NCBI GenBank assembly: GCA_949451605.1 | Contig: CASTSB010000002.1 | Location: 116,771 to 180,770 of the forward strand | From: an uncultured Bacilli bacterium | GTDB lineage: Bacteria > Bacillota_I > Bacilli_A > RF39 > UBA660 | Length of the DNA: 64,000 bases | Direction: 5' to 3' | In this document: in pieces, positions 2,241 to 63,765 of the stretch | How the letters are laid out: every line of letters begins with the position of its first letter | How positions within the stretch are numbered: the first letter of the stretch is position 1 | Made by a program: the position numbers and the translations under genes | The notes under the pieces: model-generated | Seen by the model: only the letters and a program-made list of their open reading frames with translations | What the model was told of the DNA's origin: nothing | Database searches by the model: none

Positions 2241-2242
2241 AA

Positions 2243-2268
2243 ATATCCACAGAAACTGTGGATATTTT
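2243..2268 (+). terminator. rho-independent terminator
   Basis: Inverted repeat atatccacag-aaa-ctgtggatat followed by a T-run. Confidence 0.6.
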
Positions 2269-2354
2269 CTTTACAATTTTTTATGTCAAAAAAAGACGAG
2301 TTTATTGAAACAAAAAATAAAAATTTATATAATAAATTTAGGAGGATAGATAAA

Positions 2355-3359: not shown

Positions 3360-3365
3360 TTTACA

Positions 3366-3395
3366 GATAAGAGGAGAAATCCTCTTTTTTTAGAA
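3366..3395 (+). terminator. putative terminator
   Basis: agaggagaaatcctct hairpin followed by tttttt. Confidence 0.45.
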
Positions 3396-3457
3396 GAAAA
3401 ATATTTTTTAATATTAAAAAAAATGATATACTCAAAATAAGACAGGAGAAAAATCGG

Positions 3458-4636: not shown

Positions 4637-4647
4637 AGTGGGTGAGT

Positions 4648-5148
4648 ATGTTGAATACAGAAAGACTATATATTGCAAATCCTTATGATGATGACAATAT
4701 AGAATTATATGAAGAGTTCGAAAAGAAAAATGAAATTACTACAAAGACTTCTACCTATTTAAAAGAAATAAGAGTTGCATACTCAAAAGAAATGTATGAG
4801 AGTTTAGAAAAAAGTAAAAATGAAATCAATCAAAATTTATACATTATGAAAGATTCTAAAATAATAGATAGTTGTTATATTAAAGCGGAAAAAGATAGAA
4901 AAGTCTGTGAATTATTTTTTGCGCCTTTAAAAATAGAACCTAAAAACAGAACTCTTTTATCAACCGTAAGTAATTATGTATTCAATATATTAGGCATGGA
5001 AGAAATATTTATTTCCATAGATACTCAAGATAAAAACTTAAAATCTAACCTAGAAGTTAAAGGATTTGAAAATCTAGGAGAAGTTAATGGAAAATTGACA
5101 TATTTAAAAGAAAAAGAAGAAATAAGAGAAATGAAAAGAGCAAGATAA
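4648..5148 (+). CDS. hypothetical protein, possibly a divergent GNAT-type acetyltransferase
   Basis: ATG 4648 follows RBS ggtgag; the track start at 4642 is a GTG. The N-terminus ERLYIANPYDDD resembles the RimJ/RimL-type 'ETERLILRP' start, but the match is weak. Confidence 0.35.
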   Translation: MLNTERLYIANPYDDDNIELYEEFEKKNEITTKTSTYLKEIRVAYSKEMYESLEKSKNEINQNLYIMKDSKIIDSCYIKAEKDRKVCELFFAPLKIEPKNRTLLSTVSNYVFNILGMEEIFISIDTQDKNLKSNLEVKGFENLGEVNGKLTYLKEKEEIREMKRAR

Positions 5149-6158
5149 TGAAATTAATCAAAGAAATTAAGAAAAACACAATATTTTTATTATTAATTAC
5201 GCTAGTAGTATTATTTGTAATATTTAAAGATAGCTATCATGATATTATTAATACACTTGCCTCTATGAACAAAGTATACATACTCATAGCAGTATTCTTT
5301 TTCTTTTTGTCTATTTTTATAAAATCGATAGCAAATTATATAATAATCAATGATGATAATAAGATGAGTTTAAAAGAATGCTTTAAACACGATCTTATAA
5401 TTCAATTTTTTAATGGTATAACTCCTTTTTCAACAGGAGGACAACCTATGGAAATATATATGCTTACAGAGCACAATATCAGTGGAATTAAGGCAACTAA
5501 TATTTCCATTCAAAACTTTATATTTTATCAAACAGCTTTAGTATTATATGGATTGCTAGCAGTTTTATATAATTATATCTTTAAATTATTTCCAAAATCT
5601 CCTGTGTTAAGCAAATTAGTATTATTAGGATTTCTTATAAATTCTTTTGTAGCTATTGTTTTACTTTGTATTTTAATTTCAAAAACTTTAACCAAAAGAA
5701 TAGCACATTTCTTTATAGAATTATTTAGTAAAATAAGACTTATTAAAGATAAGGAAAAAACACTTTTAAATATAGATAATAAATTAGATGAATTTCACGA
5801 AAGTGCATTAATGCTAAGAAAAAGAAAAGGTTTATTTTTAACTGGAATTATTTTACATTTTCTTAGTTTAACCTTTGCATACATTATTCCTCTTATAATT
5901 GTATATAGTATTAATGACTTTACTAGTTTAACTATTATGGAAGCAATTACTTGCTCAGCTTATGTTTTGTTAATAGGAGCTTTTGTTCCAATTCCAGGAG
6001 CAAGTGGTGGAATTGAATTTGGGTTCTTACAGTTCTATGGACATTTCTTAAGTAGCAATGTTATTTCAGGAGTATTGATCGCTTGGAGATTTATTACATA
6101 TTATTTAGGTATTATTATAGGTGCCTTAGTGTTTAATTTTGAAAAGAAGGTGGACTAA
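5148..6158 (+). CDS. multi-pass membrane protein, flippase-like / lysylphosphatidylglycerol-synthase TM-domain family (UPF0104-like)
   Basis: 336 aa with about 8 predicted TM helices. Translationally coupled to the downstream glycosyltransferase, an arrangement typical of glycolipid synthase/flippase pairs. Confidence 0.5.
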   Translation: MKLIKEIKKNTIFLLLITLVVLFVIFKDSYHDIINTLASMNKVYILIAVFFFFLSIFIKSIANYIIINDDNKMSLKECFKHDLIIQFFNGITPFSTGGQPMEIYMLTEHNISGIKATNISIQNFIFYQTALVLYGLLAVLYNYIFKLFPKSPVLSKLVLLGFLINSFVAIVLLCILISKTLTKRIAHFFIELFSKIRLIKDKEKTLLNIDNKLDEFHESALMLRKRKGLFLTGIILHFLSLTFAYIIPLIIVYSINDFTSLTIMEAITCSAYVLLIGAFVPIPGASGGIEFGFLQFYGHFLSSNVISGVLIAWRFITYYLGIIIGALVFNFEKKVD

Positions 6159-48086: not shown

Positions 48087-48119
48087 ATGCACTATCGATC
48101 AGTAAAAGGGGTACGGTCT

Positions 48120-49943
48120 ATGTATAAAGAAACTGAAGAAGAAAGAGAGTTAAGAAGAAAAAAGATTCTTAATGAATTAAATACTTTTATAATCTCTAAC
48201 ATTTCTTATACAAAATACTTAGAAACTCTAGGAAATATTAATGACCTAGACTCTTTTTGCAATGTAGAAAAACTACAAGTAATTTATGCATCATTTATGA
48301 TGATGTTGTGGAAAGATGAATATATAAAAAAAGATAAAAGTAGACTTATATCAACATTATCTGATGAATTATTAGATGATATTGTTTCAATTGTCGCAGA
48401 ACAAAGAAATGATAATTCATGGAAAATTGGTGACTTAATATTTGAAAATAATTATGATGTCATAGATGTTATAAAAAATAAGCTTGCTCATGGTGATTAT
48501 ATAATTAATGAGAATTATTTAGAATTAGACATTGATAAGAAAAAAGGCTATATTTTAATTGACAACTTAGTAGATTTTACAAATGAATTAGCAGTTAAAT
48601 GGGAAAAAATTAAATCTAAAGGAGAAAATATTCAAAACTTTGTAACTGTAAAAATACCTAGTAAAGATTTAAAAGGTAAAATAAATAATTTTAAAGATGT
48701 TAATAAATATTTAAAATATTTAGGTTATCTAGAATTATCAGATAAACCATATCCAGGTTATGAAAGAAATAGAGAATATACTGAAACTATTGAAGAATTT
48801 ACCTCATCACTTATAAGTAATATGAATGGTAAAAATCCTAATTATATAGACGTCCTTAAAATGTATTTATTATCTATGCAGAAATTAGGTATAGATTTAA
48901 ATATTAAGTCCACTCCTGCTAATATGCTACCTAATTATGAAAAAGTTTTAGAATGTTTTAGAAAAAATAAAACTTTTTATAGAGAAGAAAACTTAGAAAA
49001 GCAAATTAACTATCTTGCCTATACTTTATATGAAAAAAACAATAACATTGCACCAAAGAAAAATATTACCGAAGGAATAATTTCTAATCAAAAGTTTTTA
49101 ATTGAATTAGCCAAAGATAATCAAACATCTTTAGTAGATTTACTAAACGCAAAGGACAAGGTTTCTCTTCCAGAAAAGAGTAAGTTAGATAAAAGTATTT
49201 TAACTTCATATCTAGTAGGTTTTTATGTAGTTTATATTTATGGATTAGATGAAATTTATACTGCTGATGAAAGAGACCATATAGATAAGATTTATAATCA
49301 TAAAATGTTTGATTTTTCTAAATTAGATTTATCCAGTATAAAACCAAATATTTTAAGTATAGATAAAGATTTTAGTTGTTTTAATGCTCAATTAAATAAG
49401 AATATCCAAACCAATAAAATAAATTTAGATAAGTATTATAAGTTAAGAAGAGATGCGATTTCTATTCGAAAAAAGATAGATGAATATAAAAATAGTCCAG
49501 AAAAAGATTTATCTAAATTAAAAAATGCTTTAAAAAAGCAAAATGAAATGATTAGTAAAGCACTTTATGAATACTCGGCTAATAAAATGAAAATTCATTT
49601 TGAAGAGGAATTTATAAAGAATGACTTTGAAAAATATAAGGAAAATAGATCGATAATTGAGCATATTAGAAATAGTATTTCACATGGAAATGTTAAAATA
49701 AACTACATTGGTGGATATGGTAGTAGAGAAGACTCAACTATTTACTTTCAAGATAGAGATAACGAAAGAATAACTTTTGAAGCAGAATTGTCAACAAAGG
49801 AATTCACAACACTTATTACAGGTAAAAATATAAAAGAAGTTTGTGGATATCTTGATACTAATACCCAAAATTATAATAAAGAAATTATGAATGAGGAAAA
49901 AGAAATTAATATAATTCCTAAACAAAAATATAAAAGATTATAA
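48120..49943 (+). CDS. hypothetical 607-aa protein with two HEPN-like motifs (tandem HEPN candidate)
   Basis: Internal duplicated motif: IKNKLAHGDYIIN (N-terminal third) and IRNSISHGNVKIN (C-terminal), that is [KR]N..[AS]HG[DN]..IN. The second copy is a canonical HEPN Rx4H. ATG 48120 follows RBS aaagggg. Confidence 0.55.
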   Translation: MYKETEEERELRRKKILNELNTFIISNISYTKYLETLGNINDLDSFCNVEKLQVIYASFMMMLWKDEYIKKDKSRLISTLSDELLDDIVSIVAEQRNDNSWKIGDLIFENNYDVIDVIKNKLAHGDYIINENYLELDIDKKKGYILIDNLVDFTNELAVKWEKIKSKGENIQNFVTVKIPSKDLKGKINNFKDVNKYLKYLGYLELSDKPYPGYERNREYTETIEEFTSSLISNMNGKNPNYIDVLKMYLLSMQKLGIDLNIKSTPANMLPNYEKVLECFRKNKTFYREENLEKQINYLAYTLYEKNNNIAPKKNITEGIISNQKFLIELAKDNQTSLVDLLNAKDKVSLPEKSKLDKSILTSYLVGFYVVYIYGLDEIYTADERDHIDKIYNHKMFDFSKLDLSSIKPNILSIDKDFSCFNAQLNKNIQTNKINLDKYYKLRRDAISIRKKIDEYKNSPEKDLSKLKNALKKQNEMISKALYEYSANKMKIHFEEEFIKNDFEKYKENRSIIEHIRNSISHGNVKINYIGGYGSREDSTIYFQDRDNERITFEAELSTKEFTTLITGKNIKEVCGYLDTNTQNYNKEIMNEEKEINIIPKQKYKRL

Positions 49944-49998: not shown

Positions 49999-50499
49999 AT
50001 GCACATTATAAATCATATAAGCCAAATTTACTTACTGAATAATAAATATTTTGTAATAGATTATAACAATAATGAAAAATTAGTATTAAATATAAAAAAA
50101 GGTAAAGAAGAAAACACTAATAATATAAAGGCTAATAATAAAAAAGTTATTTATCAAAATGGAAATGATTACCAGGAAAGTTTTGAATTATGTGAAATAG
50201 AAAGCATTACATTAAGAAGTAACGTAGAACTTTTAAATAATACTAATCAAAAGATAATCTCTTCTCCTTACTTAATTGAGATTAAGGATACAGAAAACAA
50301 CTCTTTCTTTATCGATGCTTGTCTAAATCAGACTTATACTAGAAAAAATCATTATATTTTAAAGTTATATTGTAACTCAAATGAAGATTATATTTTTAGT
50401 TTAAATAAGAAAATAGTTCCTTTCAATATTTTAATCAAGCTAAATATTTGTAATTTAATAAGTCCACTTCTTGCGATAGATGAAGAAGATATAGTATAA
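49999..50499 (+). CDS. hypothetical protein
   Basis: 166 aa. It is followed by two hairpin terminators (atccaca..tgtggat; aagaacc..ggttctt). Confidence 0.4.
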   Translation: MHIINHISQIYLLNNKYFVIDYNNNEKLVLNIKKGKEENTNNIKANNKKVIYQNGNDYQESFELCEIESITLRSNVELLNNTNQKIISSPYLIEIKDTENNSFFIDACLNQTYTRKNHYILKLYCNSNEDYIFSLNKKIVPFNILIKLNICNLISPLLAIDEEDIV

Positions 50500-50608
50500 A
50501 GTTTTATCCACAAATCCTGTGGATATTTTATTTTAAATAATGACATTTATTATAAACAAAAAAGAACCATTAGGTTCTTTTAATCATATCTTATAATAGG
50601 TGATTTAT

Positions 50609-50887
50609 ATGAATAATTTAGTTGGAGTAATAGTAGACGCTGGACATGGTGGAAATGACCCAGGTGCTGTAGCTGGAAATTTAAAAGAAAAAGATTTAAC
50701 CTTAAAAGCATCAAAATATATGTATGACAGATTAAGAGAATTAGGAATAGATGCAGAGCTTACAAGAGATTCAGATACTTCTCTTCCAAAATCAGAAAGA
50801 ATTAAAAAAGTATTAAGTTTATACAATAATAATCCTAATGTAATTTTAGTTGCTAATCATATTAACGCAGGTGGTCAGGACACGTAA
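50609..50887 (+). pseudogene. N-acetylmuramoyl-L-alanine amidase (Amidase_3, CwlC/endolysin-like), 5' part of a gene split by element insertion
   Basis: MNNLVGVIVDAGHGGNDPGAVAGNLKEKDLTLK...VANHINAGG, then QDT-stop read from element DNA. It continues in frame at 63873. Confidence 0.7.
50869..50874. repeat. attL core (aggtgg) of the integrated element
   Basis: The same hexamer occurs at 63872-63877. Joining the two flanks restores ...HINAGG/EGAEIVY. Confidence 0.5.
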
Positions 50888-51210: not shown

Positions 51211-51264
51211 ATAGAAAGTTGTGGAAACACAATTTTTTTAATGCTAGAAAAGAGGAAAAAATAT

Positions 51265-51564
51265 ATGAAAATAAAATCAATAAAAAAAGAAGAAGGATAT
51301 ACAGTGATGAGTAACTATCATTTTAAAGACAGAAGGTTAAGCTTAAAAGCAAAAGGATTACTTTCATTAATGTTATCATTACCAGATAATTGGGATTTTT
51401 CAATAATGGGATTAACTAGTATTTGTATTGAAAGCAGAGATACAATCAGAAAAATTATAAATGAATTAAAGATTAATAAGTATCTTAAAGTAGTAGAAAA
51501 TAGAGATAAGAATGGAAGATTTTATTATGAGTATATAATATATGAAAAACCATACGATGATTAA
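51265..51564 (+). CDS. mobile-element-associated helix-turn-helix protein
   Basis: NYHFKDRRLSLKAKGLLSLMLSLPDNWDFSIMGL...SRDTIRKIINELKINKYL...KNGRFYYEYIIYEKP is a pattern common in Firmicutes phage/ICE regulatory and replication proteins. Confidence 0.55.
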   Translation: MKIKSIKKEEGYTVMSNYHFKDRRLSLKAKGLLSLMLSLPDNWDFSIMGLTSICIESRDTIRKIINELKINKYLKVVENRDKNGRFYYEYIIYEKPYDD

Positions 51565-51751
51565 TCCATAGTACCTTTACGGTTATATGGATTTCCGTAT
51601 TCGGTTTTACATGTAGAATAGATAATAAAAAATAAAGTAATAAAACTAATAGTTAAAGATGTTAAAGGAAAAATGAAACAAATTAATAAGAAAAAATAAA
51701 TTTATTATGAAAAAATATGATATAATTATTATGGAAGTGTAGGTGGTAAAA

Positions 51752-52627
51752 ATGAAGAAAAAACAAAATTTATTGTTACAACCAGTTTTAAAATGGGCTG
51801 GAGGGAAAAGACAATTAATTCCTCAGTTGGAAAAATTTTTTCCAAAAAAATTTACTACCTATTATGAACCTTTTATAGGTGGAGGAGCAGTATTATTCCA
51901 TTTACAACCATCAAAGGCAGTAATTAACGATTTCAACGAGGATTTAATAAATTGCTATAGGTGTATAAAAGATAATTTGGATGAACTGATAGAAAAATTA
52001 AAATATTATGAGGCAAAAAATGATTCAGAGAGTTATTATGAAATAAGAGCTATTGATAGGACTGAAGAATATAAAAGTTGGAGTCCAGTAGAACGAGCAG
52101 CAAGGTTAATATATTTAAATAGAACATGTTATAACGGTTTGTTTAGAATGAATAGTGCTGGTCAATTTAATTCTCCATTTGGGTCTTACAAAAATCCTTG
52201 TATATGTAATGAACCTGTCTTAAGAGCAATAAATAAATATTTTAATGAAAATGAAATAGAGTTTAGATCAGGAGATTTTTATGATGCATGTATTGATGCT
52301 CCAAAGGGATCATTTATATATTTAGATCCTCCTTACGATCAATATGATGAACAAGTTAATTTTGTTGGTTATACAAAAAATGGTTTTTCAAGAACTGATC
52401 AAGAGCGTTTAAAGAATATGTGTGATGAATTAATTGAGCGTGGATGCTATATTATGGTAAGCAATTCAAAAACTCCTTTTATTGTTAATTTATATAGTGA
52501 TACAACAAAATATATAACTTATACAATTAATACGGTGAATGCAAGGAGAAATATAAATAGTAATGCTCAAAAGCGTGGTGAAGTTGAGGAGGTTTTGATT
52601 ATTGGAAAATTGGATATCAAAGAATAA
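51752..52627 (+). CDS. Dam-family N6-adenine DNA methyltransferase (D12 class)
   Basis: LKWAGGKRQL, EPFIGGGAV, DPPY and NRTCYNGL motifs. ATG 51752 follows RBS aggtgg. Confidence 0.85.
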   Translation: MKKKQNLLLQPVLKWAGGKRQLIPQLEKFFPKKFTTYYEPFIGGGAVLFHLQPSKAVINDFNEDLINCYRCIKDNLDELIEKLKYYEAKNDSESYYEIRAIDRTEEYKSWSPVERAARLIYLNRTCYNGLFRMNSAGQFNSPFGSYKNPCICNEPVLRAINKYFNENEIEFRSGDFYDACIDAPKGSFIYLDPPYDQYDEQVNFVGYTKNGFSRTDQERLKNMCDELIERGCYIMVSNSKTPFIVNLYSDTTKYITYTINTVNARRNINSNAQKRGEVEEVLIIGKLDIKE

Positions 52628-53900
52628 TAAAGCATGGAATGAACTGTTTGAAAGATTTAATATTATTAATGCAATAGAAGGAAATGGTTTTTTTGAAATT
52701 ACTGCTGATCAAATTAAAGAATCAGGAAGAGAGCCAAGATTAATGACTAAGTTTGATAGCAGTGAAAATTTACCAACAATTTTTGCAGAAAATAACCTAG
52801 CAATATTGCCAATTAAACGTGGCTCATATATTATAGGAAAATTTCAAAATTATCAAACTGTTGAATTAAATAATGATTTAGATGTTGAAACTAAATATTT
52901 ACCAGATTATATTTCAACTATTGATTACAGTAATATTCCAAGTGAAGCAATATCGTTAAATTCTGCATATATCTCTGGAATGATTGAAGATATTGTTGGA
53001 GAAGAAGTTGTACCTACTATACAAGGAAGAATGGGAACTGGTGAATTCAATTATCAAATATCATTAAAAGATAATAATAAATTTGATGTAAGTGTTCAAA
53101 ATTCTCAAATGGAAATAGACGGTAGTTATGAGGGAATAAGTAAATTTGTAATATTCGAAGCAAAAAATCATTACATGAAAGATTTCATAATAAGGCAATT
53201 ATATTATCCGTATAAAGTTTGGAAAAAAGTTACGCATAAAGAAATAATTCCAATTATGTTAATTAAGCATGATAATATATTTAATTTTTTTATCTATGAA
53301 TTTTTAGATGAAAATAATTATAATAGTATAAGATTAAAGAAAATCAAAAGATATATTTTAGATGAAATATATAATCCAATCGAAGTTGTTGACATACAAA
53401 ATATTATGAATCAAGTTGAATTTGTTAAAGAAGATAATGTCCCTTTTCCACAAGCAAATTCTTTTTATAGAGTTTTAGATTTAATCAATGAATTAAATAA
53501 TCAAGAATTATCTGCAAGTGATATTGCAGACATTTATGAATTTGATATTAGACAAGCAAATTATTATTTAGCTGCTGCACAATATTTAGGCTTAGTTGTG
53601 AAAGATAAAAACTACAAATTATCTGATCATGGAAAAAGTATAATGCAAATGAACCATAAAAATAAGAATTTAGCAATTATTAGTATTATTTTATCTCACA
53701 AACCTTTTTACTGTGCACTTGAGCAATATTTAACAAATTTTGAATTTGATTATTCAGAAATAGCAAAAGTTATTTATGAAAATAGAGATGAAATCAATTC
53801 AACTGGAACGGCAGAAAGAAGAACAAGTACTGTAATTGCTTGGGTTAAATGGATTATGGAATTAACAACTGTTTTTGAAAGAAATCCTTTTGATGAATAG
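52602..53900 (+). CDS. putative restriction endonuclease partner of the Dam-family methyltransferase
   Basis: 432 aa. Overlaps the MTase 3' end by 26 nt. No motif recognised. The assignment rests on its context. Confidence 0.4.
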   Translation: MENWISKNNKAWNELFERFNIINAIEGNGFFEITADQIKESGREPRLMTKFDSSENLPTIFAENNLAILPIKRGSYIIGKFQNYQTVELNNDLDVETKYLPDYISTIDYSNIPSEAISLNSAYISGMIEDIVGEEVVPTIQGRMGTGEFNYQISLKDNNKFDVSVQNSQMEIDGSYEGISKFVIFEAKNHYMKDFIIRQLYYPYKVWKKVTHKEIIPIMLIKHDNIFNFFIYEFLDENNYNSIRLKKIKRYILDEIYNPIEVVDIQNIMNQVEFVKEDNVPFPQANSFYRVLDLINELNNQELSASDIADIYEFDIRQANYYLAAAQYLGLVVKDKNYKLSDHGKSIMQMNHKNKNLAIISIILSHKPFYCALEQYLTNFEFDYSEIAKVIYENRDEINSTGTAERRTSTVIAWVKWIMELTTVFERNPFDE

Positions 53901-54025
53901 AATATTAAATGGAGAAAGAAACTCCATTTTTATTTTAGTTCTTTATAATAATTGCAAAATATTTTAAAAATATTTTGCAATTATTATTTATTTGTGATAT
54001 TATATAGTTGATTTTGGAGGTGTCT

Positions 54026-54244
54026 ATGGAAACTATAAAACAACAAAACTTTAAAAGGATTGCTGAAAATAGAATAAATAAAATTGTTGATTTAATTTCA
54101 AAACTTCATAATCTATCAAATTCATCATTTTATGAATATACAGATGAACAAATAGATAAAATGTTTGATATTATCCAAAAAGAATTGGATAGACAAAAAG
54201 AAGAATTTAAAAAGAAAGGAAAAAATAGAAAAATAGAATTGTAG
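54026..54244 (+). CDS. small protein, first gene of the GHKL operon
   Basis: 73 aa with RBS ggaggtg upstream. Largely helical and charged. Confidence 0.45.
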   Translation: METIKQQNFKRIAENRINKIVDLISKLHNLSNSSFYEYTDEQIDKMFDIIQKELDRQKEEFKKKGKNRKIEL

Positions 54245-54254
54245 GTGTAGTAAG

Positions 54255-56183
54255 ATGTTTAATGAATTATTTTTTAAAGATAAGCCAAAATGGAAATTTA
54301 TTGAAAACAACTATGGTAATGATAACGGTCTAGACTCTACTGACATGGAAACTTTTAAAAAAGATCCTATTGCCTCATTGGCTAGGGAATCATGTCAAAA
54401 TTCAGTAGACGCGCAAAAGAGCGAAAATGCCGTTTTAATTCAGTTTAAAGTGTTTTATATGGATACAAAAGAAATTCCCGGTATAAACGATTTGATTAAT
54501 GAAATTACAGCATGTAGAAATTCAAATGTAGAGGGTAGTAGACAATATATTCAATTTAATAATATGCTTGAATATTTAAAAAATAAAAGTATTCCTTGCT
54601 TAAGAATTAGTGACTTCAATACAAAAGGATTAGAAGGAGTACGAAATAATTCAAGAGACAAGGCCTTTTATAGATTAACTAAAGGAAATGGTCAAACAAC
54701 AAAAGAAAATGGAATTAATGGTGGTTCAAAAGGTATTGGTAAATTTGCCTCATTTGTTAATAGTCAAATCCAAACTGTTTTCTATTCTACGTTAAATATG
54801 GATAACGAGAAAGGTTTTTTGGGGATTTCTAAATTAGCTTCACGACCTTTAGATAATGAACTATTGTGTACAACAGGATATGGGTACTTTTCAAGAACTG
54901 AAAAAGTTTTACCAATATTAGATGATTTAAATCTAGATAAAAACTTTATGAGAACTGAAACGGGAACAGATATATATATTTTAGGATTTAAAATTGAAGA
55001 ATCATGGAAAAAAGACATAATAACTAAAGTTTTAGATAGTTTTATGTGTGCTATACATTTTGGTAAATTAGGTGTTGAAGTAGATGATGTATTATTAACA
55101 AAAGATACATTAAAAGATATTGTTTATAATGAAAAATATATTAATGGTGTGAAAGATAAAAGAAGAATTATAAGTCAATATATTCTTTTAAATAATGATT
55201 ATGTTCACAAAAAAGAATTTAACATTAATGGATATGGAAATTTTGAAGTTTATGTTAGGGAATTTAATAGAGAAGACGAGTATTTAGCTACAAAGAAATG
55301 TTCAATGATTAGATATCCTTATATGAAAATAAAAGATTTTAATGTGGCTTGCGCAGTACCATGTTCTGCCCTATGTATAATACCAGAAAACAAATTAAAT
55401 AAAACACTTATCGATATAGAAAATCCACAGCACACTGACTGGGAATATCTTCGTTTAAATCCTGATGACAGAAAATTAATGCGAAAATTATTGAATGAAT
55501 TAGAAAGAACTATATCCGAATATGCAAATGAATGTTTATTGAATGGTAAAAATGAAGAGATAGATATGGAAGGTGCTGGGGATTTATTACCAGATTTAGA
55601 TAATTATATTGATGTTTCATTATCTAATTCGGAAGTTGAATCTAATAAGCCGCGTATAATAAGTGTTGTACAAAATAAAGTAAAAAATACTTTTGGTGAA
55701 GTAGAAGATGAAAACGCTATTTCTAATCAGCCAGATATTGGAACACATATTGATGAAGATGTTGATGATGTTTCTCCTATACCTGAAGGTCAAAATGAAC
55801 ATTCTGGAGCAGATGTACATGATTCTCAAAATGAAACAGGATATTCTTCAGACGGAAACGATGAAATAATGAAAGAAGTTTCTTTATCTGGAATTAAATC
55901 TACCATCTTTATTTTAAATAAAGAGTTAGGTAAATATGCAATTAGTTTTAATTCAATATATGATGAAAAAAATTGCGAATTAGAAATGTATTATCTTGAT
56001 GATTCTGACAATAAGTATAAAGCTTTAATAAAGTCTTGTACTATTAATGGTGAAGATGGAAAAGTAGAAAACGGAAAAATTGTAAATATGAATCTAAAAA
56101 AAGATACAATGTATAAAATAGAAGTTCATACAAATTTAAATGATATTTATGCCTGTGAGGTGAGATTATATGCGATTAGGTAA
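54255..56183 (+). CDS. GHKL-superfamily (MutL/Hsp90/MORC-like) ATPase-domain protein
   Basis: N-box-like ASLARESCQNSVDA, a G1-like DFNTKGLEG, a G2-like GINGGSKGIGKFASF. An acidic linker (aa ~440-520) and a C-terminal domain follow. Confidence 0.6.
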   Translation: MFNELFFKDKPKWKFIENNYGNDNGLDSTDMETFKKDPIASLARESCQNSVDAQKSENAVLIQFKVFYMDTKEIPGINDLINEITACRNSNVEGSRQYIQFNNMLEYLKNKSIPCLRISDFNTKGLEGVRNNSRDKAFYRLTKGNGQTTKENGINGGSKGIGKFASFVNSQIQTVFYSTLNMDNEKGFLGISKLASRPLDNELLCTTGYGYFSRTEKVLPILDDLNLDKNFMRTETGTDIYILGFKIEESWKKDIITKVLDSFMCAIHFGKLGVEVDDVLLTKDTLKDIVYNEKYINGVKDKRRIISQYILLNNDYVHKKEFNINGYGNFEVYVREFNREDEYLATKKCSMIRYPYMKIKDFNVACAVPCSALCIIPENKLNKTLIDIENPQHTDWEYLRLNPDDRKLMRKLLNELERTISEYANECLLNGKNEEIDMEGAGDLLPDLDNYIDVSLSNSEVESNKPRIISVVQNKVKNTFGEVEDENAISNQPDIGTHIDEDVDDVSPIPEGQNEHSGADVHDSQNETGYSSDGNDEIMKEVSLSGIKSTIFILNKELGKYAISFNSIYDEKNCELEMYYLDDSDNKYKALIKSCTINGEDGKVENGKIVNMNLKKDTMYKIEVHTNLNDIYACEVRLYAIR

Positions 56184-57078
56184 AAAAGTTCCACCATATC
56201 CAATTTTGAATAAATCTCTTAATATGAGCTCATACAAAAATTCAAATTTTTCTTTTAGTTATGAATTGGAAGAAACAAAGGAATTGTTTATAATTAAAAA
56301 TGCCAAAATTGAAACGGATAGTGGAGATTTGCTGAAGTATTTTAATCTTCAAAAATTAAAAGCAGTAGTGATTGTGGAATGTTCTTCTACTGTTTATAGA
56401 AATAAATTTGAAATATCTATAAATCCTGTTGATATAGAAATTCCAATAAAAGATTTAAATGATAAAGTTGAAATATCTTGTTTTGTATATGCAATAGAAG
56501 ATATTGAAAATTATTCAAGCAAAGATATGCAAGATGTTTATCAAGGATATTCTTTTATGATAGAAAAATATAGTATGTTTGCTGTTGATGATGGTATTAC
56601 GATGAAAATAGAATATGATGATAAAGAAGATAATAAAGTAGCATCGATATTTTCTGTTATAAAAAGTTTTGATCAAAATTTAAATAATATGAAAGTTGAA
56701 CTAACTGATAGAAAGATAAAAATAATATTACCAGAAAAATCTTTTGAGTATTATGATGCACTTAAAGATAAAGAACCTTTTCAAAGTATATTTTTTTCAA
56801 TACTTGTTATTCCCTCTTTAACTTATGCATTTAGTGAGATTCAAAAGCTTCCAAATGAAACAGAAATAGATGATATTGTAGATAAATATAGCTGGTTTAA
56901 ATCAATTGTAGCTAGTTACAAAAAATTATATAAAGTTGATCTAGATTATGAAACTTTTAAGCAACTTGTACCACTAGAGTTAGCACAAGGTTTAATGAAT
57001 AATTGTACTACTAGTTCATTTGATGATTTTTATAAAGCTGTTACAAATATCATTCCTAATGAAATGGAGGATGAATAA
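56170..57078 (+). CDS. hypothetical protein (GHKL operon gene 3)
   Basis: 302 aa. Overlaps the upstream gene by 14 nt. No motif recognised. Confidence 0.45.
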   Translation: MRLGKKVPPYPILNKSLNMSSYKNSNFSFSYELEETKELFIIKNAKIETDSGDLLKYFNLQKLKAVVIVECSSTVYRNKFEISINPVDIEIPIKDLNDKVEISCFVYAIEDIENYSSKDMQDVYQGYSFMIEKYSMFAVDDGITMKIEYDDKEDNKVASIFSVIKSFDQNLNNMKVELTDRKIKIILPEKSFEYYDALKDKEPFQSIFFSILVIPSLTYAFSEIQKLPNETEIDDIVDKYSWFKSIVASYKKLYKVDLDYETFKQLVPLELAQGLMNNCTTSSFDDFYKAVTNIIPNEMEDE

Positions 57079-57079
57079 T

Positions 57080-57904
57080 ATGAATAAAACTATTAATATT
57101 TCTTTTATGACAGATGAAGCATTAGAAACTTTGAGAGAAAATAGTGATAGAGTATCAGAGTATATTAAATCAAATAAACTTGATTCTAGTTGGATCCATG
57201 AACTTTATAGTGGAAAGGTATATGATTTAAAGAAGGAAAAAATAAATGACTTTGAACTAAAAACTTCCTTAAATGATAATTATAAAGAAGTAGAACTTGA
57301 TAATGCTGTAATATTATATGAATCATTAAAAGATTTGCCTAGATGTATTATTACAGATGAAAGATTTTGGGCTTGGATTAATCTAAATAAATGCTATAAA
57401 GCTACAACTCAAGCAATGCCAATTAAGTCGTCATCAACTTTTAAAAACATGTGGTTATTTACGCAAGGAAAGAGAAGAGGTATTTTCTTTGGAGCAAATT
57501 CTAGATTATATTTTTGGACAGAATTAACAGTAGATGATGAATCATTAGAGGATAAATATTTATATACAAGATTTGTATTTGAAAATCATGAGAGAATAAG
57601 ACAATTAACATGGAGATCAAATTCAAACAATAAACATATTGTATTAAATGTGGTAAAAGCTGAAAAGATGCTATATGATAAATATGCGAAGAATTCTGAA
57701 TACATGGAGGCATTTAATAAATGTGAAAGAGGTGTTGGAACTCGTAATATTTATACTGCTATTTCAAAATATTTATCATTATATGGAAGTGTAAGAGTAT
57801 TAGATGTTATATCAGATGAAGATTTGCAAAATTTCATCTATAATAAACTTGAAGAAATATTATTTGAAGTACAGAAAAATAATATGGAAATTTTTAATAT
57901 GTAA
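57080..57904 (+). CDS. hypothetical protein (GHKL operon gene 4)
   Basis: 274 aa. ATG 57080 follows RBS ggagga and sits 1 nt after the upstream stop. Confidence 0.45.
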   Translation: MNKTINISFMTDEALETLRENSDRVSEYIKSNKLDSSWIHELYSGKVYDLKKEKINDFELKTSLNDNYKEVELDNAVILYESLKDLPRCIITDERFWAWINLNKCYKATTQAMPIKSSSTFKNMWLFTQGKRRGIFFGANSRLYFWTELTVDDESLEDKYLYTRFVFENHERIRQLTWRSNSNNKHIVLNVVKAEKMLYDKYAKNSEYMEAFNKCERGVGTRNIYTAISKYLSLYGSVRVLDVISDEDLQNFIYNKLEEILFEVQKNNMEIFNM

Positions 57905-57917
57905 GGAATAATTTCTA

Positions 57918-58925
57918 ATGAATAATGATTATATAAATATAATTAATATATTTGAAGAATCAGAACGACTTCCTAATGATAAGTATTGTTTATATCCTGA
58001 AAAAAAATATTGTAGAGGGAAAATTAAACGAGCACATACAATACAAAATAATAAAATTTTGATAAGTGTTTCCGATAATGGTAATCTTATTGCGTTAAAT
58101 GGTAAATCTGCCATTGGTTTTCAAGAATCAGAAAAACAAGGAAGAGGAGTAGCAACTACTTTTTGGGGATTTTGTGATTATCATGATACAGTTGTTTTCG
58201 AACCTATTGAAAATTACAATTATGATAAATCACTAAAGCAAACATTTTTATACACGTATAGAACATTTTCATGGCACTACTATTTAAAAGAAACTCAATT
58301 AAACAAAAATAATTATATACAAAATAAAGTTAATATTAATTTGAAAAATAATGATTATTTTTTAGGAATAGTATTAGGAAGTAGTGATAATAAAAAAATA
58401 AAAGAAAAAATTGATGCTGCTATTCTAAATAAAAATTATGACATTATAAAATACTATGTGTGGGAAATTCCATTTAAAGTGAATTTTTGCTGTTGTGGGA
58501 TGGTTCAATTGTTTAAAGATTTGTTAGGCAACGATATTAATAATTATGAAGAGCTATTAGATATAAATAAACCAATGAAAAATCTTTTCATAAATATATT
58601 TCCAGAAAAAAATAAATCGTATTGTATATTTTCGTGGCTTACTGATGATTTTGAATATGATAATTTTACTATTCAATTTTCTAAATTAACATTGAAAGAT
58701 AAAATAAATTATATGAATAATATGTTGCCTAAAGAAACTGATAAAATTTTTATTAATCCGAAATTATGGAATAAATGGGGAAGTAATATTCAACAATCAT
58801 TTATAGAATGGGCTAATATAAGTATATTATGTAATGCAATGCAAGCTGAAACAAAGAAAAAAATGAAATGGAAATATTCATTTGTTCCATGGAATTTATT
58901 TGATTGTTCAGAGAAATTGAAGTAG
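57918..58925 (+). CDS. hypothetical protein (GHKL operon gene 5)
   Basis: 335 aa. Cys/His-containing N-terminal region (CRGKIKRAHTIQNN). Confidence 0.45.
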   Translation: MNNDYINIINIFEESERLPNDKYCLYPEKKYCRGKIKRAHTIQNNKILISVSDNGNLIALNGKSAIGFQESEKQGRGVATTFWGFCDYHDTVVFEPIENYNYDKSLKQTFLYTYRTFSWHYYLKETQLNKNNYIQNKVNINLKNNDYFLGIVLGSSDNKKIKEKIDAAILNKNYDIIKYYVWEIPFKVNFCCCGMVQLFKDLLGNDINNYEELLDINKPMKNLFINIFPEKNKSYCIFSWLTDDFEYDNFTIQFSKLTLKDKINYMNNMLPKETDKIFINPKLWNKWGSNIQQSFIEWANISILCNAMQAETKKKMKWKYSFVPWNLFDCSEKLK

Positions 58926-58939
58926 TAAAAGGTGATAAA

Positions 58940-60505
58940 ATGGTAATAGAGAAAATGAAAATAAAAAATTTTAAAAGATTTAAGGGAGAAGTCGAGATTA
59001 ATTATAATAGTGATTTTAATGTCATTATAGGAAACAATGAATCAGGAAAAAGTTCAATCTTACAAGCAATTGATTTAGTTTTAAGTGGAAATAAAAATAA
59101 AATAGAAAATATTGGATTAGACAATTTATTTAATACAGAAATTATAGATGAATTTATGAATAGTGATAGAGATATTTCTAAGATACCTGAAATATTTGTA
59201 GAGTTATATCTTAATGATACTGGTAATATGGATTTATCGGGGAATAACAATTCAGAAAAAAGAGAATGTGACGGTCTGGTATTAAAGATTCAAATAGATG
59301 AAGAATTTGTAAAAATAATTGATGAATCATTAAGAAAAGAAAATGCCGTTTTTCCATTTGAATATTATAAGTGTATTTTTAAGACATTTGCAGATGACTC
59401 ATACAACAATTATAAAAAGCCAGTTAAGCATATTGTCATTGACGAATCAAATTTATCAAACGATTACTACATAAAGGAATATATTTCTGATCTTTATTCT
59501 TCGTATGCAGATGAAACAACAAAAAATCTTTTTAATAACGAATTTAGAAAATTAAAAAAGGGATTTGAAGAAACAACATTAGAAGAAATGAATAAAAAAG
59601 TCCCAACTGTAAATTTTGGATTAACCAATCACAGTAAGTATTCTTTAGAAAACAATTTAACACTATATGAACAAGGAATTAATATATGGAATAAAGGTTC
59701 TGGAAGTATTTGTATGTTAAAAATTAAAACTTCTGTTGATAAACAATCAGAAAACATTGATTTAGTATTAATAGAAGAACCGGAAAATCATTTGAGTGAT
59801 ATTAATATGAAAAAAATGATAAATGATATTGTTAGCACTACTCAAAAACAAACATTTATTAGTACTCATAATAGTATGATTTGTTCAAGATTAGATTTAA
59901 GAAAAATAGTTGCTTTAAGCAATAACAAAATATCAACAACTGAATTTAGAAACATTCCAAAAGATACTGCTAATTTCTTCATTAAATGCCCATCTAATAG
60001 CATTTTAAATTTTATTCTATCTGATAAAAGCATTTTAGTAGAAGGTTCTGCTGAATATGTACTCTTCGAAAAATTTTATAAAATAATCACTGGTGTAAAT
60101 CCAAGTGAAGATAATGTTAACATTATTTCAGTAAACAATTTAGGTTTTAAAAGATATCTCGAAGTAGCAACCAATTTAAATAAAAAAGTAGTAGTTATAA
60201 CTGATAACGACAAGAATTATAAATCAAACATAACTGAAAAATACAAGGATTTTAAAAATCTGGATAATATAAGTATTTTTTCAGATGAGAATGAAGAAAG
60301 ATATACTTTTGAAGTTTGTATTTATAATGATAACATTGAATATATAAATAATCACAAATTAACAACATCCGAAAATATTTTAGAATTTATGTTAAGAGAA
60401 AAAGCAGAAGTTGCCTTTAGATTATTAGAACATCTTGAAAAAGATACAACTGGATTTAAAATTCCTTCATATATTGAGGATGCAATTAAATGGATAAGAG
60501 AATAA
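58940..60505 (+). CDS. gajA: Gabija GajA-like OLD-family ATP-dependent endonuclease (AAA_15 ATPase + TOPRIM)
   Basis: N-terminus IKNFKRFKG...INY...NVIIGNNESGKSSILQAI (OLD/AAA_15 P-loop). A Toprim-like region (LVEGSAEYVLFE) lies near the C-terminus. Confidence 0.75.
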   Translation: MVIEKMKIKNFKRFKGEVEINYNSDFNVIIGNNESGKSSILQAIDLVLSGNKNKIENIGLDNLFNTEIIDEFMNSDRDISKIPEIFVELYLNDTGNMDLSGNNNSEKRECDGLVLKIQIDEEFVKIIDESLRKENAVFPFEYYKCIFKTFADDSYNNYKKPVKHIVIDESNLSNDYYIKEYISDLYSSYADETTKNLFNNEFRKLKKGFEETTLEEMNKKVPTVNFGLTNHSKYSLENNLTLYEQGINIWNKGSGSICMLKIKTSVDKQSENIDLVLIEEPENHLSDINMKKMINDIVSTTQKQTFISTHNSMICSRLDLRKIVALSNNKISTTEFRNIPKDTANFFIKCPSNSILNFILSDKSILVEGSAEYVLFEKFYKIITGVNPSEDNVNIISVNNLGFKRYLEVATNLNKKVVVITDNDKNYKSNITEKYKDFKNLDNISIFSDENEERYTFEVCIYNDNIEYINNHKLTTSENILEFMLREKAEVAFRLLEHLEKDTTGFKIPSYIEDAIKWIRE

Positions 60506-61518
60506 TTTTAGCTAAAGCTGGTTCTGGAAAGACAACTGAAATAATTAATAGATTAGATGTTAATAATAAAAATTTAATTATAACTTATACACAAAGCAAT
60601 TATAATACTTTAAAATCTAAAATAATAAAAAAATATAAAGAAATACCCAAAAATATTAAAATATATACATATTTTTCATTTTTATATAAAGTCTGTTTTG
60701 CTCCTTTAAAAAGAAACTGGAATATTAAAGGATTATACTTTCATAAAAACAGCAACAGATTTGTCAGTTCAGAAAGTGTTGACTATTATTTGAATAAAAA
60801 CAATAGAAAAATGTATCATTATAGATTAGCGAAATTTTGTAATGAAAAAATGCTTAATGAGATTAAAAAGAGACTTGAAAAATATTTTGATTATATTTAT
60901 ATAGATGAAGTTCAGGACTTTTCAGGACATGATTTTAATTTTTTAATGAAAATTCTTGAATTTGATATTAACTTTTTACTAGTAGGTGATTTTTACCAAC
61001 ATACATATGATACAAGTCAAGATGGTAATGTTAATAAAAATCTATATAACAATTATGATAATTATTTGAAAAAGTTTAAAGATAAAAAAATCTTAATAGA
61101 TACAACTAGTTTAATAAAAAGTAGAAGATGTTCGAAAAATGTTTGCCAATTCATAAAAGATGAATTAAAAATAGATATAGAATCAGAAAAAGAAGAAGTT
61201 ACTATTATAAAAGAGCTTACAACAGAAGATGAGATAGATAAGATTATAAAAGATGATAGTATTACTAAATTGTTCTATCAAAATAATACAATTTACAAAA
61301 TAAATAATAAAAATAATTGGGGAAATTCAAAAGGTGAAACATATAAAGATGTATGTGTGGTATTGAATAAAAATAGCTATTCATTTTTCGTAAATAATAG
61401 ATTAGGAGAATTGCCACCACAGACTAAAAATAAATTATATGTTGCATGTAGTAGACCATCAGGGAATCTATATTTTATAAATGAAGAATTACTAAAACAA
61501 TATAAAAATAAAAAGTAA
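60490..61518 (+). CDS. gajB: Gabija GajB-like UvrD-family helicase (short form)
   Basis: Walker A AKAGSGKTTEI, YIDEVQDF (motif II), and C-terminal VACSRPSGNLY. Overlaps gajA by 16 nt. Confidence 0.7.
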   Translation: MDKRIILAKAGSGKTTEIINRLDVNNKNLIITYTQSNYNTLKSKIIKKYKEIPKNIKIYTYFSFLYKVCFAPLKRNWNIKGLYFHKNSNRFVSSESVDYYLNKNNRKMYHYRLAKFCNEKMLNEIKKRLEKYFDYIYIDEVQDFSGHDFNFLMKILEFDINFLLVGDFYQHTYDTSQDGNVNKNLYNNYDNYLKKFKDKKILIDTTSLIKSRRCSKNVCQFIKDELKIDIESEKEEVTIIKELTTEDEIDKIIKDDSITKLFYQNNTIYKINNKNNWGNSKGETYKDVCVVLNKNSYSFFVNNRLGELPPQTKNKLYVACSRPSGNLYFINEELLKQYKNKK

Positions 61519-61616: not shown

Positions 61617-61645
61617 TAGGGAGATAATTTATCTCTCTTTTTTTA
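61617..61645 (+). terminator. terminator-like hairpin in the recombinase upstream region
   Basis: gagataa-t-ttatctc hairpin followed by ttttttt. Confidence 0.4.
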
Positions 61646-62124: not shown

Positions 62125-63765
62125 GTGTATAGCAATATAATACAAGCACCAAGTTTTTATAAAGTAGGTTTATATATTAGGTTATCTGAAAGTGACGAAG
62201 ATAAGGCTTATGAATCCGAAAGTGAAAGTATAATTAATCAAAGAAATTTACTTTTGGATTATGTGAAGTCATGTGGTTTTACTTTAGTAAAAGAGTATGT
62301 AGATGATGGATTTACTGGCACAAACTTTGATAGACCAGCTTTTCAAGAAATGATTAAAGATATTGAATCTGGTTTAATCAATTGTGTCATTACAAAAGAT
62401 TTATCAAGATTAGGTAGAGATTATATTCAATGTGGATATTATGTTGAACAATATTTCCCACAAAATAAAATAAGATATATTTCGATTCTTGATCAAGTTG
62501 ATACTTTTTTGGAAACAGCTAATAATGATATTGCTCCGTTTAAAGCATTATTTAATGATATGACAAGCAAAGATACATCTAAGAAGATTCGTTCAATTTT
62601 AAAAAATAAAAAAGAGCAAGGAAAATTTATTGGTAGTAAGCCATGTTATGGATATATGAGAGATACTCTTGATAAAGGTCATTTGATTCCTGATCCAGAA
62701 GTTGCTCCAATTGTTAAAAAGATTTTTAATATGGCATATTCTGGGATAGGTGTAAGTGATATAGTTGGTTATCTAAATGATAATCATATATTAAGTCCAA
62801 GTATGTACAAAAATACTAAATCATCTTCGAGACAAAAAGTGAATGTATGGACAATATCTTCAGTTAATAAATTATTAAAAAATAGAATGTATACTGGAGA
62901 TATGGTTCAAAATGTTCAAACTAAATTGTCGTATAAGTCTCAAAAGAAAATTGCTTTAGAAAAGGAATTCTGGATTATTGTTGAAGATACTCATGAACCT
63001 TTAGTTAGTAAAGTTATATTTGATGCAATACAAAATGCTCCATCAAGAACAAGAGTAACGCATTGTAATAGAGAAAAAAGATTATTAGAAAATTTGCTTG
63101 TTTGTAAAGAGTGTGGAAATTCTTTAAGTGTGTTATATAGAAAAAATAAAAATTATAAAGATGGAAAATATTGGAGTGTTAATTGTAATAAATATGCTAG
63201 AGATCCAAGAAGGCATTTGTGCTATCCTCATTTCTTTCCTTATGATAAATTAGAAGAAAAGATAATGGAAGCAATTAAAAATACTTGCCAAAAATATTTG
63301 AATAGTTTAAATATTAAAGAGCTATCAGAAAAAGTAATATCTTCTAGGTTAACAACTAAAAATGAAAAACTAAAGGAAAGAGAAAAACTAGTTCAAGAAA
63401 TTGAAGAATTAAAACGAAAGCTAGATTCATTATATGATGATAAATTTAGTGGCATTATTTCTGTTGAATCTTATACAAGATTATCGTCTCAAACTGAAAA
63501 GCAAATATCAGCACTAAATTTACGAGTTTATGAGATTGATAATGAAGATAAACAAATAAAAGAAGATGCAAAGGAAATAATAAAGTATGAAGATCAAATT
63601 AAATCACTTTTAAATTTGGATAATCCTAATAGAGAATTAATAAAAACTTTAGTAAAAGAAATATATATTGATAAGGATAAAAACATTGAAATCAAATATA
63701 GATTTAAGGTGCTAGATGATATTAAAATAAATTACGAAGAAATAAAAACTAAAATAGAGAGGTAA
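62125..63765 (+). CDS. large serine recombinase (integrase)
   Basis: Resolvase-type catalytic N-terminus (YIRLSESDED..S..NQ), a recombinase domain, Cys-rich zinc-ribbon (CKECGNS...C..C) and a coiled-coil C-terminus. Confidence 0.85.
   Translation: MYSNIIQAPSFYKVGLYIRLSESDEDKAYESESESIINQRNLLLDYVKSCGFTLVKEYVDDGFTGTNFDRPAFQEMIKDIESGLINCVITKDLSRLGRDYIQCGYYVEQYFPQNKIRYISILDQVDTFLETANNDIAPFKALFNDMTSKDTSKKIRSILKNKKEQGKFIGSKPCYGYMRDTLDKGHLIPDPEVAPIVKKIFNMAYSGIGVSDIVGYLNDNHILSPSMYKNTKSSSRQKVNVWTISSVNKLLKNRMYTGDMVQNVQTKLSYKSQKKIALEKEFWIIVEDTHEPLVSKVIFDAIQNAPSRTRVTHCNREKRLLENLLVCKECGNSLSVLYRKNKNYKDGKYWSVNCNKYARDPRRHLCYPHFFPYDKLEEKIMEAIKNTCQKYLNSLNIKELSEKVISSRLTTKNEKLKEREKLVQEIEELKRKLDSLYDDKFSGIISVESYTRLSSQTEKQISALNLRVYEIDNEDKQIKEDAKEIIKYEDQIKSLLNLDNPNRELIKTLVKEIYIDKDKNIEIKYRFKVLDDIKINYEEIKTKIER

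Follow-up and report, generated by a model that had tools for sequence, protein, structure and literature searches.

A 2008 study predicted that the MORC and paraMORC ATPases of prokaryotes are components of restriction-modification (R-M) systems and ancestors of the eukaryotic MORC silencers (Iyer, Abhiman & Aravind 2008, PMC2292703). paraMORCs were described there as mobile proteins in which a GHKL ATPase is joined to an S5 domain and whose genes occupy R-M neighborhoods, with an ExxxH motif at the C-terminal part of S5 for paraMORC2 (PMC2292703). A separate line of work catalogued the cassette CAS_00129, made up of the three families FAM_02818>>FAM_02838>>FAM_01881, as PDC-M33, one of 145 untested "guilt-by-embedding" phage defense candidates that are embedded in BREX, DISARM or Type I R-M (Payne et al., bioRxiv 10.1101/2024.01.29.577857). 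As catalogued, PDC-M33 has three genes and no assigned function, and its definition includes no leader gene, operator or methyltransferase (MTase). Here we analyzed a 64,000-nt stretch of contig CASTSB010000002.1 (positions 116,771-180,770; hereafter the window, within which all positions below are counted), where five co-directional genes, g1 to g5, lie between an R-M gene pair and a Gabija system inside an integrated element of about 13 kb. g2, g3 and g4 belong to PDC-M33, g2 is most likely a paraMORC-type ATPase, and the block that is inherited together runs from the upstream R-M pair to the end of g4, which leaves g5 outside it.

The literature that we searched contained no functional study of an R-M-linked MORC or paraMORC member or of PDC-M33, and no paper naming PDC-M33 or DUF6339; papers on the defensome of lactic acid bacteria (LAB) likewise contained no functional test of PDC-M33. 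The pairing of g1 with an operator, the statistical tie to D12 methylases and the g5-Gabija cassette, all described below, are absent from the catalogued three-gene definition and from this literature.

Results

The R-M pair and the first four genes of the locus are laid out as follows (REase, restriction endonuclease).

51743-52627, forward strand: D12-class (Dam/DpnM-like) N6-adenine DNA MTase, first gene of the block (Pfam MethyltransfD12, 1e-64; PADLOC MTase_II, 1e-97)
52602-53900, forward strand: type II REase candidate with the architecture DUF6996-DUF6997-DUF7226 (PADLOC REase_II, 1.5e-88, full length; Pfam DUF6997, 7e-59)
54026-54244, forward strand: g1, leader gene for a basic protein of 72 amino acids (aa) counted from the ATG, with GGAGG 6 nt 5' of the start
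54255-56183, forward strand: g2 (PDC-M33A), 642 aa, GHKL (Bergerat) ATPase, paraMORC2-like
56170-57078, forward strand: g3 (PDC-M33B), 302 aa, overlapping g2 by 14 nt
57080-57904, forward strand: g4 (PDC-M33C, DUF6339 family), 274 aa, 1 nt after g3 and last gene of the conserved block

In searches against PADLOC-DB v2, g2 matched PDC-M33A (E 3.4e-136, profile positions 4-625 of 627), g3 matched PDC-M33B (E 2.1e-61, positions 1-282 of 289) and g4 matched PDC-M33C (E 2.3e-32, positions 2-243 of 247). The three matches are adjacent and co-directional, and their order and orientation are those of the catalogued cassette. g4 also belongs to Pfam DUF6339 (1.5e-28), the sole match when g1 to g5 were scanned against Pfam, NCBIfam and PHROGs, and PDB sequence and profile searches with g2, g3, g4 and g5 gave nothing significant. 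A preliminary description of this DNA, made from the sequence, had regarded the locus as an uncharacterized five-gene system of novel architecture. Its picture of five tightly packed co-directional genes agrees with the list of open reading frames (ORFs), in which all five are on the forward strand, and its reading of the region as a defense candidate is borne out by the PDC-M33 matches and the defense-rich mobile element, which support g1-g4 as a candidate defense cassette. The claim of novelty, however, gives way to the full-length matches of g2-g4 and the DUF6339 assignment: the confident profile matches to an already described system that the description had named as counting against it were found as far as cataloguing goes, for a system without a described function. 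Similarly, its statement that the four proteins other than g2 show no recognizable motif holds for g1, g3 and g5, which have no Pfam match above the curated cut-off, but not for g4.

The same description had pointed to Bergerat-fold motifs in g2, and both ASLARESCQNSVDA and GINGGSKGIGKFASF are present. g2 contains motif I (ExxxNxxD), motif II (DxxxxG) and the G2 box (GxxGxG), and in 31 homologues that are 42-91% identical the residues E45, N49, D52, D120, G125, G156, G157, S158, K159, G160, G162 and K163 are invariant. In an AlphaFold2 model (pLDDT 74), residues 1-430 are a well-folded module, residues 432-539 a disordered acidic linker and residues 540-642 a beta-sandwich at the C terminus. 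Residues 1-430 form a GHKL ATPase with the Bergerat fold followed by an S5-like transducer domain, as in modules of the GHL/MORC type, and an ExxxH motif (E389-N-P-Q-H393) at the end of this structured N-terminal module is invariant in the homologues. g2 has no Pfam HATPase match at E <= 0.01 and does not match the profiles of MORC proper or HATPase_c_3 or the MORC-specific motif, and its likeness to MORC3 is structural only (12% identity). Motifs and model together support the prediction that g2 is a GHKL ATPase of the MutL/MORC/Hsp90 type. Within the linker (window positions 55550-55870) lie short, strongly conserved motifs (D437, A441, L445; P510, G512, N514, H522, G529), which are possible docking sites for partner proteins. 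g3 consists of two beta-sandwich domains and a C-terminal helical bundle in which no catalytic fold was recognized. Conservation in g4 falls on aromatic and basic residues, and no catalytic signature was seen.

To define the conserved unit, we surveyed 79 related genome loci, nearly all from metagenome-assembled genomes (MAGs) of Bacillota or Mollicutes, within a g2 family of more than 1555 homologues. g2-g3-g4 are syntenic in every locus that is long enough (n=79; the same order was counted in 67-71 of 79, the misses falling at contig ends), and a homologue of g1, the best-conserved protein of the set, is present in 60 of the 79, where it always heads the operon. Neither phmmer nor a family profile, by contrast, detected g5 in any of the 79 PDC-M33 loci. 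At the DNA level, the closest genome (L001) is colinear with the window at 91% from 51669, just 5' of the MTase gene, to the g4 stop at 57908 and no further. The stable block is therefore MTase-REase-g1-g2-g3-g4 (51669-57908); the upstream R-M pair is inherited together with g1-g4 and is more than a neighbor. The pair itself comprises predicted cognate MTase and REase genes of a type II R-M system: the nearest solved structure to the MTase is DpnM (2dpm, E 9e-81), a likeness that predicts GATC as its site, and the REase ORF overlaps the MTase gene by 26 nt.

The arrangement around this core varies (MT and RE, methyltransferase and restriction endonuclease genes). MT-RE-g1-g2-g3-g4 occurs in the window and in L001-L006 and L073, and the REase family accompanies the MTase in 12 of the 79 related loci. 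The commonest architecture is MT-g1-X-g2-g3-g4, in which X, absent from this window, is a protein of about 850 aa encoded between g1 and g2 in 38 related loci (L007-L075; e.g. L011:6411-8990). Further arrangements are g1-X-g2-g3-g4-MT with or without RE, MT-g1-g2-g3-g4, a divergent MT adjoining g1-g2-g3-g4 and, in L036, Type III Mod-Res-g1-X-g2-g3-g4. X has a Sigma70_r4-type helix-turn-helix (HTH) at about residues 250-300 with a weak match to the HTH region of MzaA, and in all but three of the X-bearing loci the window's REase family has no homologue; X may be what recognizes or cleaves the target. Comparisons by hhalign among X, the REase, g2, g3 and g4 revealed no relationships. More distant cassettes, at 26-27% identity, occur in three further settings: on a Lactobacillus salivarius megaplasmid the cassette follows HsdS-HsdM, on Lactococcus lactis pS127 it lies beside an AlwI R-M system and AbiG, and a third is carried by phage NatCom_9291. 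The two plasmid versions, from L. lactis and L. salivarius, yielded no g1 homologue. NatCom_9291 (L091, PV036421.1) is a temperate Clostridium innocuum phage whose g1-g2-g3-g4 homologues (1907-5986) sit directly beside the integrase; in this prophage-borne copy the g1 homologue is clear (E 3e-29), the promoter is operator-like (AAATATTGACAAATAATATT), and a DNA methyltransferase is encoded about 1 kb further downstream.

We next asked how often the cassette is accompanied by a methylase, counting loci with at least 1.5 kb of flank and scoring a D12 MTase within 2.2 kb of the block. A D12 MTase was near 33 of 39 g1-bearing cassettes, compared to none of eight g1-less cassettes; among the other loci, L036 has a Type III Mod+Res pair, and ResIII genes were also seen. 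Both this locus and 60 of 79 related loci differ from PDC-M33 as catalogued in having a conserved leader gene with a conserved operator, accompanied by a D12 MTase.

The operator and the elements around it lie between the R-M pair and g1.

53907-53929, forward strand: terminator-like hairpin at the boundary of the R-M pair and g1, an 8-bp stem (AAATGGAG/CTCCATTT) followed by a T run
53945-53987, no strand: perfect palindrome of 21+21 nt (ATAATAATTGCAAAATATTTT a AAAATATTTTGCAATTATTAT) whose arms are 100% complementary and which overlaps the -35 box; putative g1 operator
53975-54003, forward strand: promoter-like site for g1-g4, TTGCAA-17-TATTAT with an upstream TG (consensus match only)

The only exact matches to the palindrome half-site in the window are inside the palindrome itself (53947-53985). 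In an alignment of 61 g1 promoters, TTGACA and TGnTATAAT-like boxes were kept, and mean column conservation was 0.78 at the palindrome region versus 0.26 further upstream. Furthermore, variant loci retained the symmetry of the palindrome, for example by changing TTGCAAAATATTT to TTGTCAAATATTT on both arms, and the 43-bp palindrome was conserved across loci whose g2 shares only 36-55% identity. The terminator-like hairpin parts the R-M pair from the g1 promoter, with equivalents after the MTase in MT-g1 loci. A promoter with a palindrome that is separated by a hairpin is the layout of controller-regulated R-M systems, and we therefore propose that g1 is an autoregulator.

In R-M systems with a controller (C) protein, as at this locus, a small gene heads the restriction-side operon, a palindromic operator resembling a C-box lies over the promoter, and the MTase is transcribed separately. 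Controller proteins delay restriction until a new host has been methylated. g1 has no match in Pfam, PADLOC, NCBIfam or PHROGs and, unlike C proteins, lacks an Xre/HTH_3 signature or any other DNA-binding profile; it is therefore proposed to act like a C protein but is not classed as one. The analogy suggests a C-protein-like autoregulator that would bind the palindrome. In one Succiniclasticum locus (L064, 14378-15528, reverse strand) a second g1 copy was observed directly 5' of the D12 MTase on the opposite strand, and its position beside the MTase supports a regulatory tie of g1 to the methylase.

We then compared the cassette with described GHKL-containing systems. The preliminary description had set it apart from paraMORC R-M modules, but the combination of GHKL and S5 domains, the ExxxH motif, the Gram-positive distribution and the R-M or MTase neighborhood all fit them. 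Compared by published description, g2 resembles paraMORC2 in its GHKL and S5 domains, ExxxH motif and C-terminal extension, and the cassette resembles paraMORC2 loci, which are mainly Gram-positive or cyanobacterial, in being Gram-positive, sporadic and mobile and in having methylase or restriction-enzyme genes around it: it occurs in Bacillota and Mollicutes MAGs, on LAB plasmids and in a Clostridium phage, with MTase or R-M genes adjacent. Thus, g2 is most likely a paraMORC-type protein, paraMORC2 by that description, and the locus is best read as an R-M-coupled paraMORC module. However, described paraMORC contexts center on superfamily II helicases, cytosine methylases, and Vsr or restriction-endonuclease-fold nucleases, whereas the PDC-M33 cassette lacks a helicase, associates with adenine (D12) methylases and brings partners of its own, a beta-sandwich/helical protein and a DUF6339 protein. 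The likeness to MutL-MutH-Dam nicking is a functional analogy only: the cassette has no MutS-like sensor, g2 ends in a beta-sandwich and lacks the C-terminal endonuclease or dimerization domain of MutL, and its context is defense on a mobile element. The MzaA-containing system likewise places a GHKL ATPase in a multi-gene, methylase-linked cassette, and X provides a weak match to it. Gene number and domains do not suggest membership in MADS, which has eight genes (mad1-mad8) including an MTase, ATPase, kinase and nuclease. Two further candidates were set aside, the HEF_HK/paraMORC two-component proteins as a different family and the GHKL-Shedu protein VcSduA for its different architecture.

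Downstream of the conserved block, the window continues with g5 and Gabija.

57918-58925, forward strand: g5, 335 aa, 13 nt after g4 and outside PDC-M33
58940-60505, forward strand: gajA, Gabija ATPase/TOPRIM nuclease (PADLOC GajA, 2.9e-109, full length; Pfam AAA_15 and OLD-like_TOPRIM)
60490-61518, forward strand: gajB, short UvrD-like helicase (PADLOC GajB, 4.4e-51; Pfam UvrD-helicase)
61618-61638, forward strand: terminator-like hairpin, the first one 3' of g1 and the end of a possible g1-gajB transcript

The window thus holds the Gabija arrangement of a GajA ABC ATPase with TOPRIM followed by a UvrD-like helicase, GajB. The most likely start of gajA is 58940, 14 nt after g5, because the GajA profile match opens at ORF residue 13. 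The flanking R-M pair and Gabija of the preliminary description are both recovered by the profile matches. A word search found 16 close homologues of g5. In four other contexts (L082, L084/L085, L087 and L088) they lie directly upstream of a short gajA-gajB pair, without PDC-M33 and with unrelated genes upstream; g5 homologue and gajA are 10-14 nt apart, gajA encodes 521-533 aa and gajB 340 aa. In a fifth context (L083), g5 precedes a GajA-like AAA_23 ORF without gajB, and two further contexts are without Gabija. As g5 is absent from PDC-M33 loci and paired with gajAB elsewhere, it belongs with Gabija or is independent. To our knowledge, a gene of the g5 family is not part of the described two-gene Gabija; here the window encodes a full-length GajA and a short GajB, and a g5 family gene repeatedly precedes this subtype, which suggests a three-gene Gabija subtype, g5-gajA-gajB. 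With 1874 clusters at 50% identity, the g5 family is large and uncharacterized; distant members have an N-terminal SEC-C zinc motif, and the invariant residues (C24, C32, H40, C86, H89, D90) hint at a metal-dependent activity. The window is therefore the junction of two separate cassettes.

Both cassettes lie in an integrated element whose boundaries are marked by a split gene and a recombinase.

50600-50887, forward strand: 5' piece of an Amidase_3 (N-acetylmuramoyl-L-alanine amidase) gene, marking the left junction of the element
62125-63765, forward strand: large serine recombinase at the right end of the element (PHROG integrase, 9e-97; NCBIfam XisF/CcrB-like)

The element of about 13 kb that the preliminary description had proposed is real: the Amidase_3 gene is split at about 50880, where the translation of the 5' fragment (...VIVDAGHGGNDPGA...HINAGG) runs into a stop, and its frame is picked up again at about 63870 with GGEGAEIVYALRNN.... 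Sister elements are inserted in the same amidase gene, encode the same recombinase and carry a g2 that is 91% identical. In them, MT-RE-g1-g2-g3-g4 is followed by Hachiman (HamA and a DEAD helicase) and not by g5-gajAB. At the same site, sister elements from other gut metagenomes (L092-L095) were observed with varied cargo, namely HEPN_AbiU2, Metallophos, and Hachiman in place of g5-Gabija. The 13-kb element and its sisters look like a family of cargo-swapping defense islands.

Discussion

We consider it probable, if far from settled, that the 13-kb element holds two independent defense cassettes joined end to end, the first of them an R-M-coupled paraMORC module. Cassette 1 (51669-57908) would consist of the Dam/DpnM-type MTase and type II REase, the hairpin and then the g1-g2-g3-g4 operon, and cassette 2 of g5-gajA-gajB, a variant of Gabija that is recurrently preceded by a partner gene. 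We infer an anti-phage activity that depends on methylation. The methyltransferase would mark host DNA as self, and g1 would bind the palindrome over its own -35 box and in this way autoregulate and time expression of the operon. A g2 dimer may then act with g3 and g4 as an ATP-gated clamp that engages unmethylated incoming DNA, g3 serving as a non-catalytic partner with its two beta-sandwich domains and helical bundle. Once engaged, the clamp might activate or extend cleavage by the linked nuclease, or hold and compact the DNA and so sequester it. MutL activates MutH at Dam sites, which is the same logic as that proposed for g2. A similar role in R-M operons was proposed for paraMORCs by Iyer et al. 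(PMC2292703).

Several findings weigh against this reading. Seven Anaeroplasmataceae loci and L077 have g2-g3-g4 without g1 or a D12 MTase, so that a core without a linked methylase is possible. The R-M systems that partner the cassette are of several types (I, II and III), which also fits simple embedding of an independent system. g1 matches no DNA-binding family in Pfam, NCBIfam or PHROGs, and as no nuclease fold was found in g3 and no catalytic signature in g4, no effector can be named where REase and X are absent. Moreover, PDC-M33 is one of 145 candidates without experiment, and no terminator lies between g4 and gajB, so functional coupling with Gabija is allowed in this element.

The main rival, which we judge unlikely but take seriously, holds that g1-g4 form a self-contained defense that acts independently of methylation and for which R-M loci are merely permissive landing sites; its GHKL ATPase would sense a phage cue and, with g3 and g4, abort infection or block phage DNA. 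It accounts well for the bare g2-g3-g4 loci with no MTase within 9 kb, for neighboring R-M systems of unrelated types (I, II, III, AlwI), for the definition of PDC systems as cargo inside BREX, DISARM or Type I R-M, and for the hairpin and independent promoter that part the R-M pair from g1. It does not lead one to expect that g1 and an adjacent D12 MTase go together (33/39 versus 0/8), nor that MT-RE-g1-g4 stays together in inheritance when the cassette downstream is exchanged. Moreover, many loci have an orphan MTase, as MT-g1-X-g2-g3-g4 or with a divergent MT, in which the window's REase family was not detected, and these are hard to explain as complete R-M neighbors. It is very unlikely, in our view, that g1-g4 serve maintenance, addiction or epigenetic regulation rather than defense, as a MutL-like, Dam-tied complex that stabilizes the element or controls its excision. 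Copies on integrative elements, on plasmids and in a temperate phage beside the integrase would suit such a role, as would the failure to find a nuclease in g3 or g4 and a tight (putative) autoregulation resembling that of addiction modules. However, the neighborhoods hold mostly defense genes (R-M, Gabija, Hachiman, AbiG and HEPN_AbiU2), the Anaeroplasmataceae copies occupy a fixed chromosomal site with no recombinase among the neighbors examined (one neighbor profiled), and R-M addiction and defense are not mutually exclusive.

The view of the preliminary description, that g1-g5 are one novel system possibly acting with gajAB, is highly improbable. Gene spacing of 1-14 nt speaks for it, as does the absence of a terminator from g1 to gajB: on the forward strand from the REase stop onward, terminator-like hairpins occur only at 53907-53929 and 61618-61638. 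As no such hairpin lies between g1 and gajB, co-transcription of g1 through gajB is possible, as that description had noted. Yet g5 is present in 0/79 loci and its homologues elsewhere stand next to gajAB, the colinear stretch goes no further than the g4 stop, and in sister elements Hachiman replaces g5-gajAB.

Building on the R-M-coupled paraMORC module, we tentatively raise a broader idea that we regard as doubtful, namely that the paraMORC2 cassette, under the control of g1, serves as a portable 'restriction adaptor' that is driven by ATP and fits onto MTases of any R-M type (orphan Dam-like, Type I HsdMS or Type III Mod). Such an adaptor could achieve nuclease-free restriction by clamping or compacting unmethylated DNA, or could activate a linked nuclease as MutL does MutH; eukaryotic MORCs clamp or compact DNA. 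If true, the cassette would be the first experimentally tractable bacterial counterpart of methylation-state-directed MORC-type silencing, and g1 with its operator would be a previously unreported class of small controller protein. Apart from this idea, the locus and its ~80 relatives offer a compact test case with a defined methylase partner, a candidate regulator and a 43-bp putative operator. Its natural variants, which differ in the presence of REase and of X or consist of the bare core alone, could show how methylation state might be coupled to restriction by a GHKL clamp. Annotation boundaries are also corrected: PDC-M33 probably needs a fourth gene and a methylase, and the Gabija subtype has a recurrent third gene.

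Other features of the element

Just outside the left junction lie two ORFs, 48087-49943 (618 aa) and 49999-50499 (166 aa), neither of which has a match in Pfam, NCBIfam or PHROGs; the 618-aa ORF has none in PADLOC either. Within the element, a 107-aa ORF (51241-51564) is similar to the winged-helix N-terminal part of phage replication initiators or DnaD-like loaders (PHROG 4707, 3e-19). The sister elements have a 98-aa protein in its place, with a weak HTH_36 match. The gene may have a regulatory role or may be left over from replication functions of the element. If the split amidase is sporulation-related, the element may be a developmentally excised intervening element.

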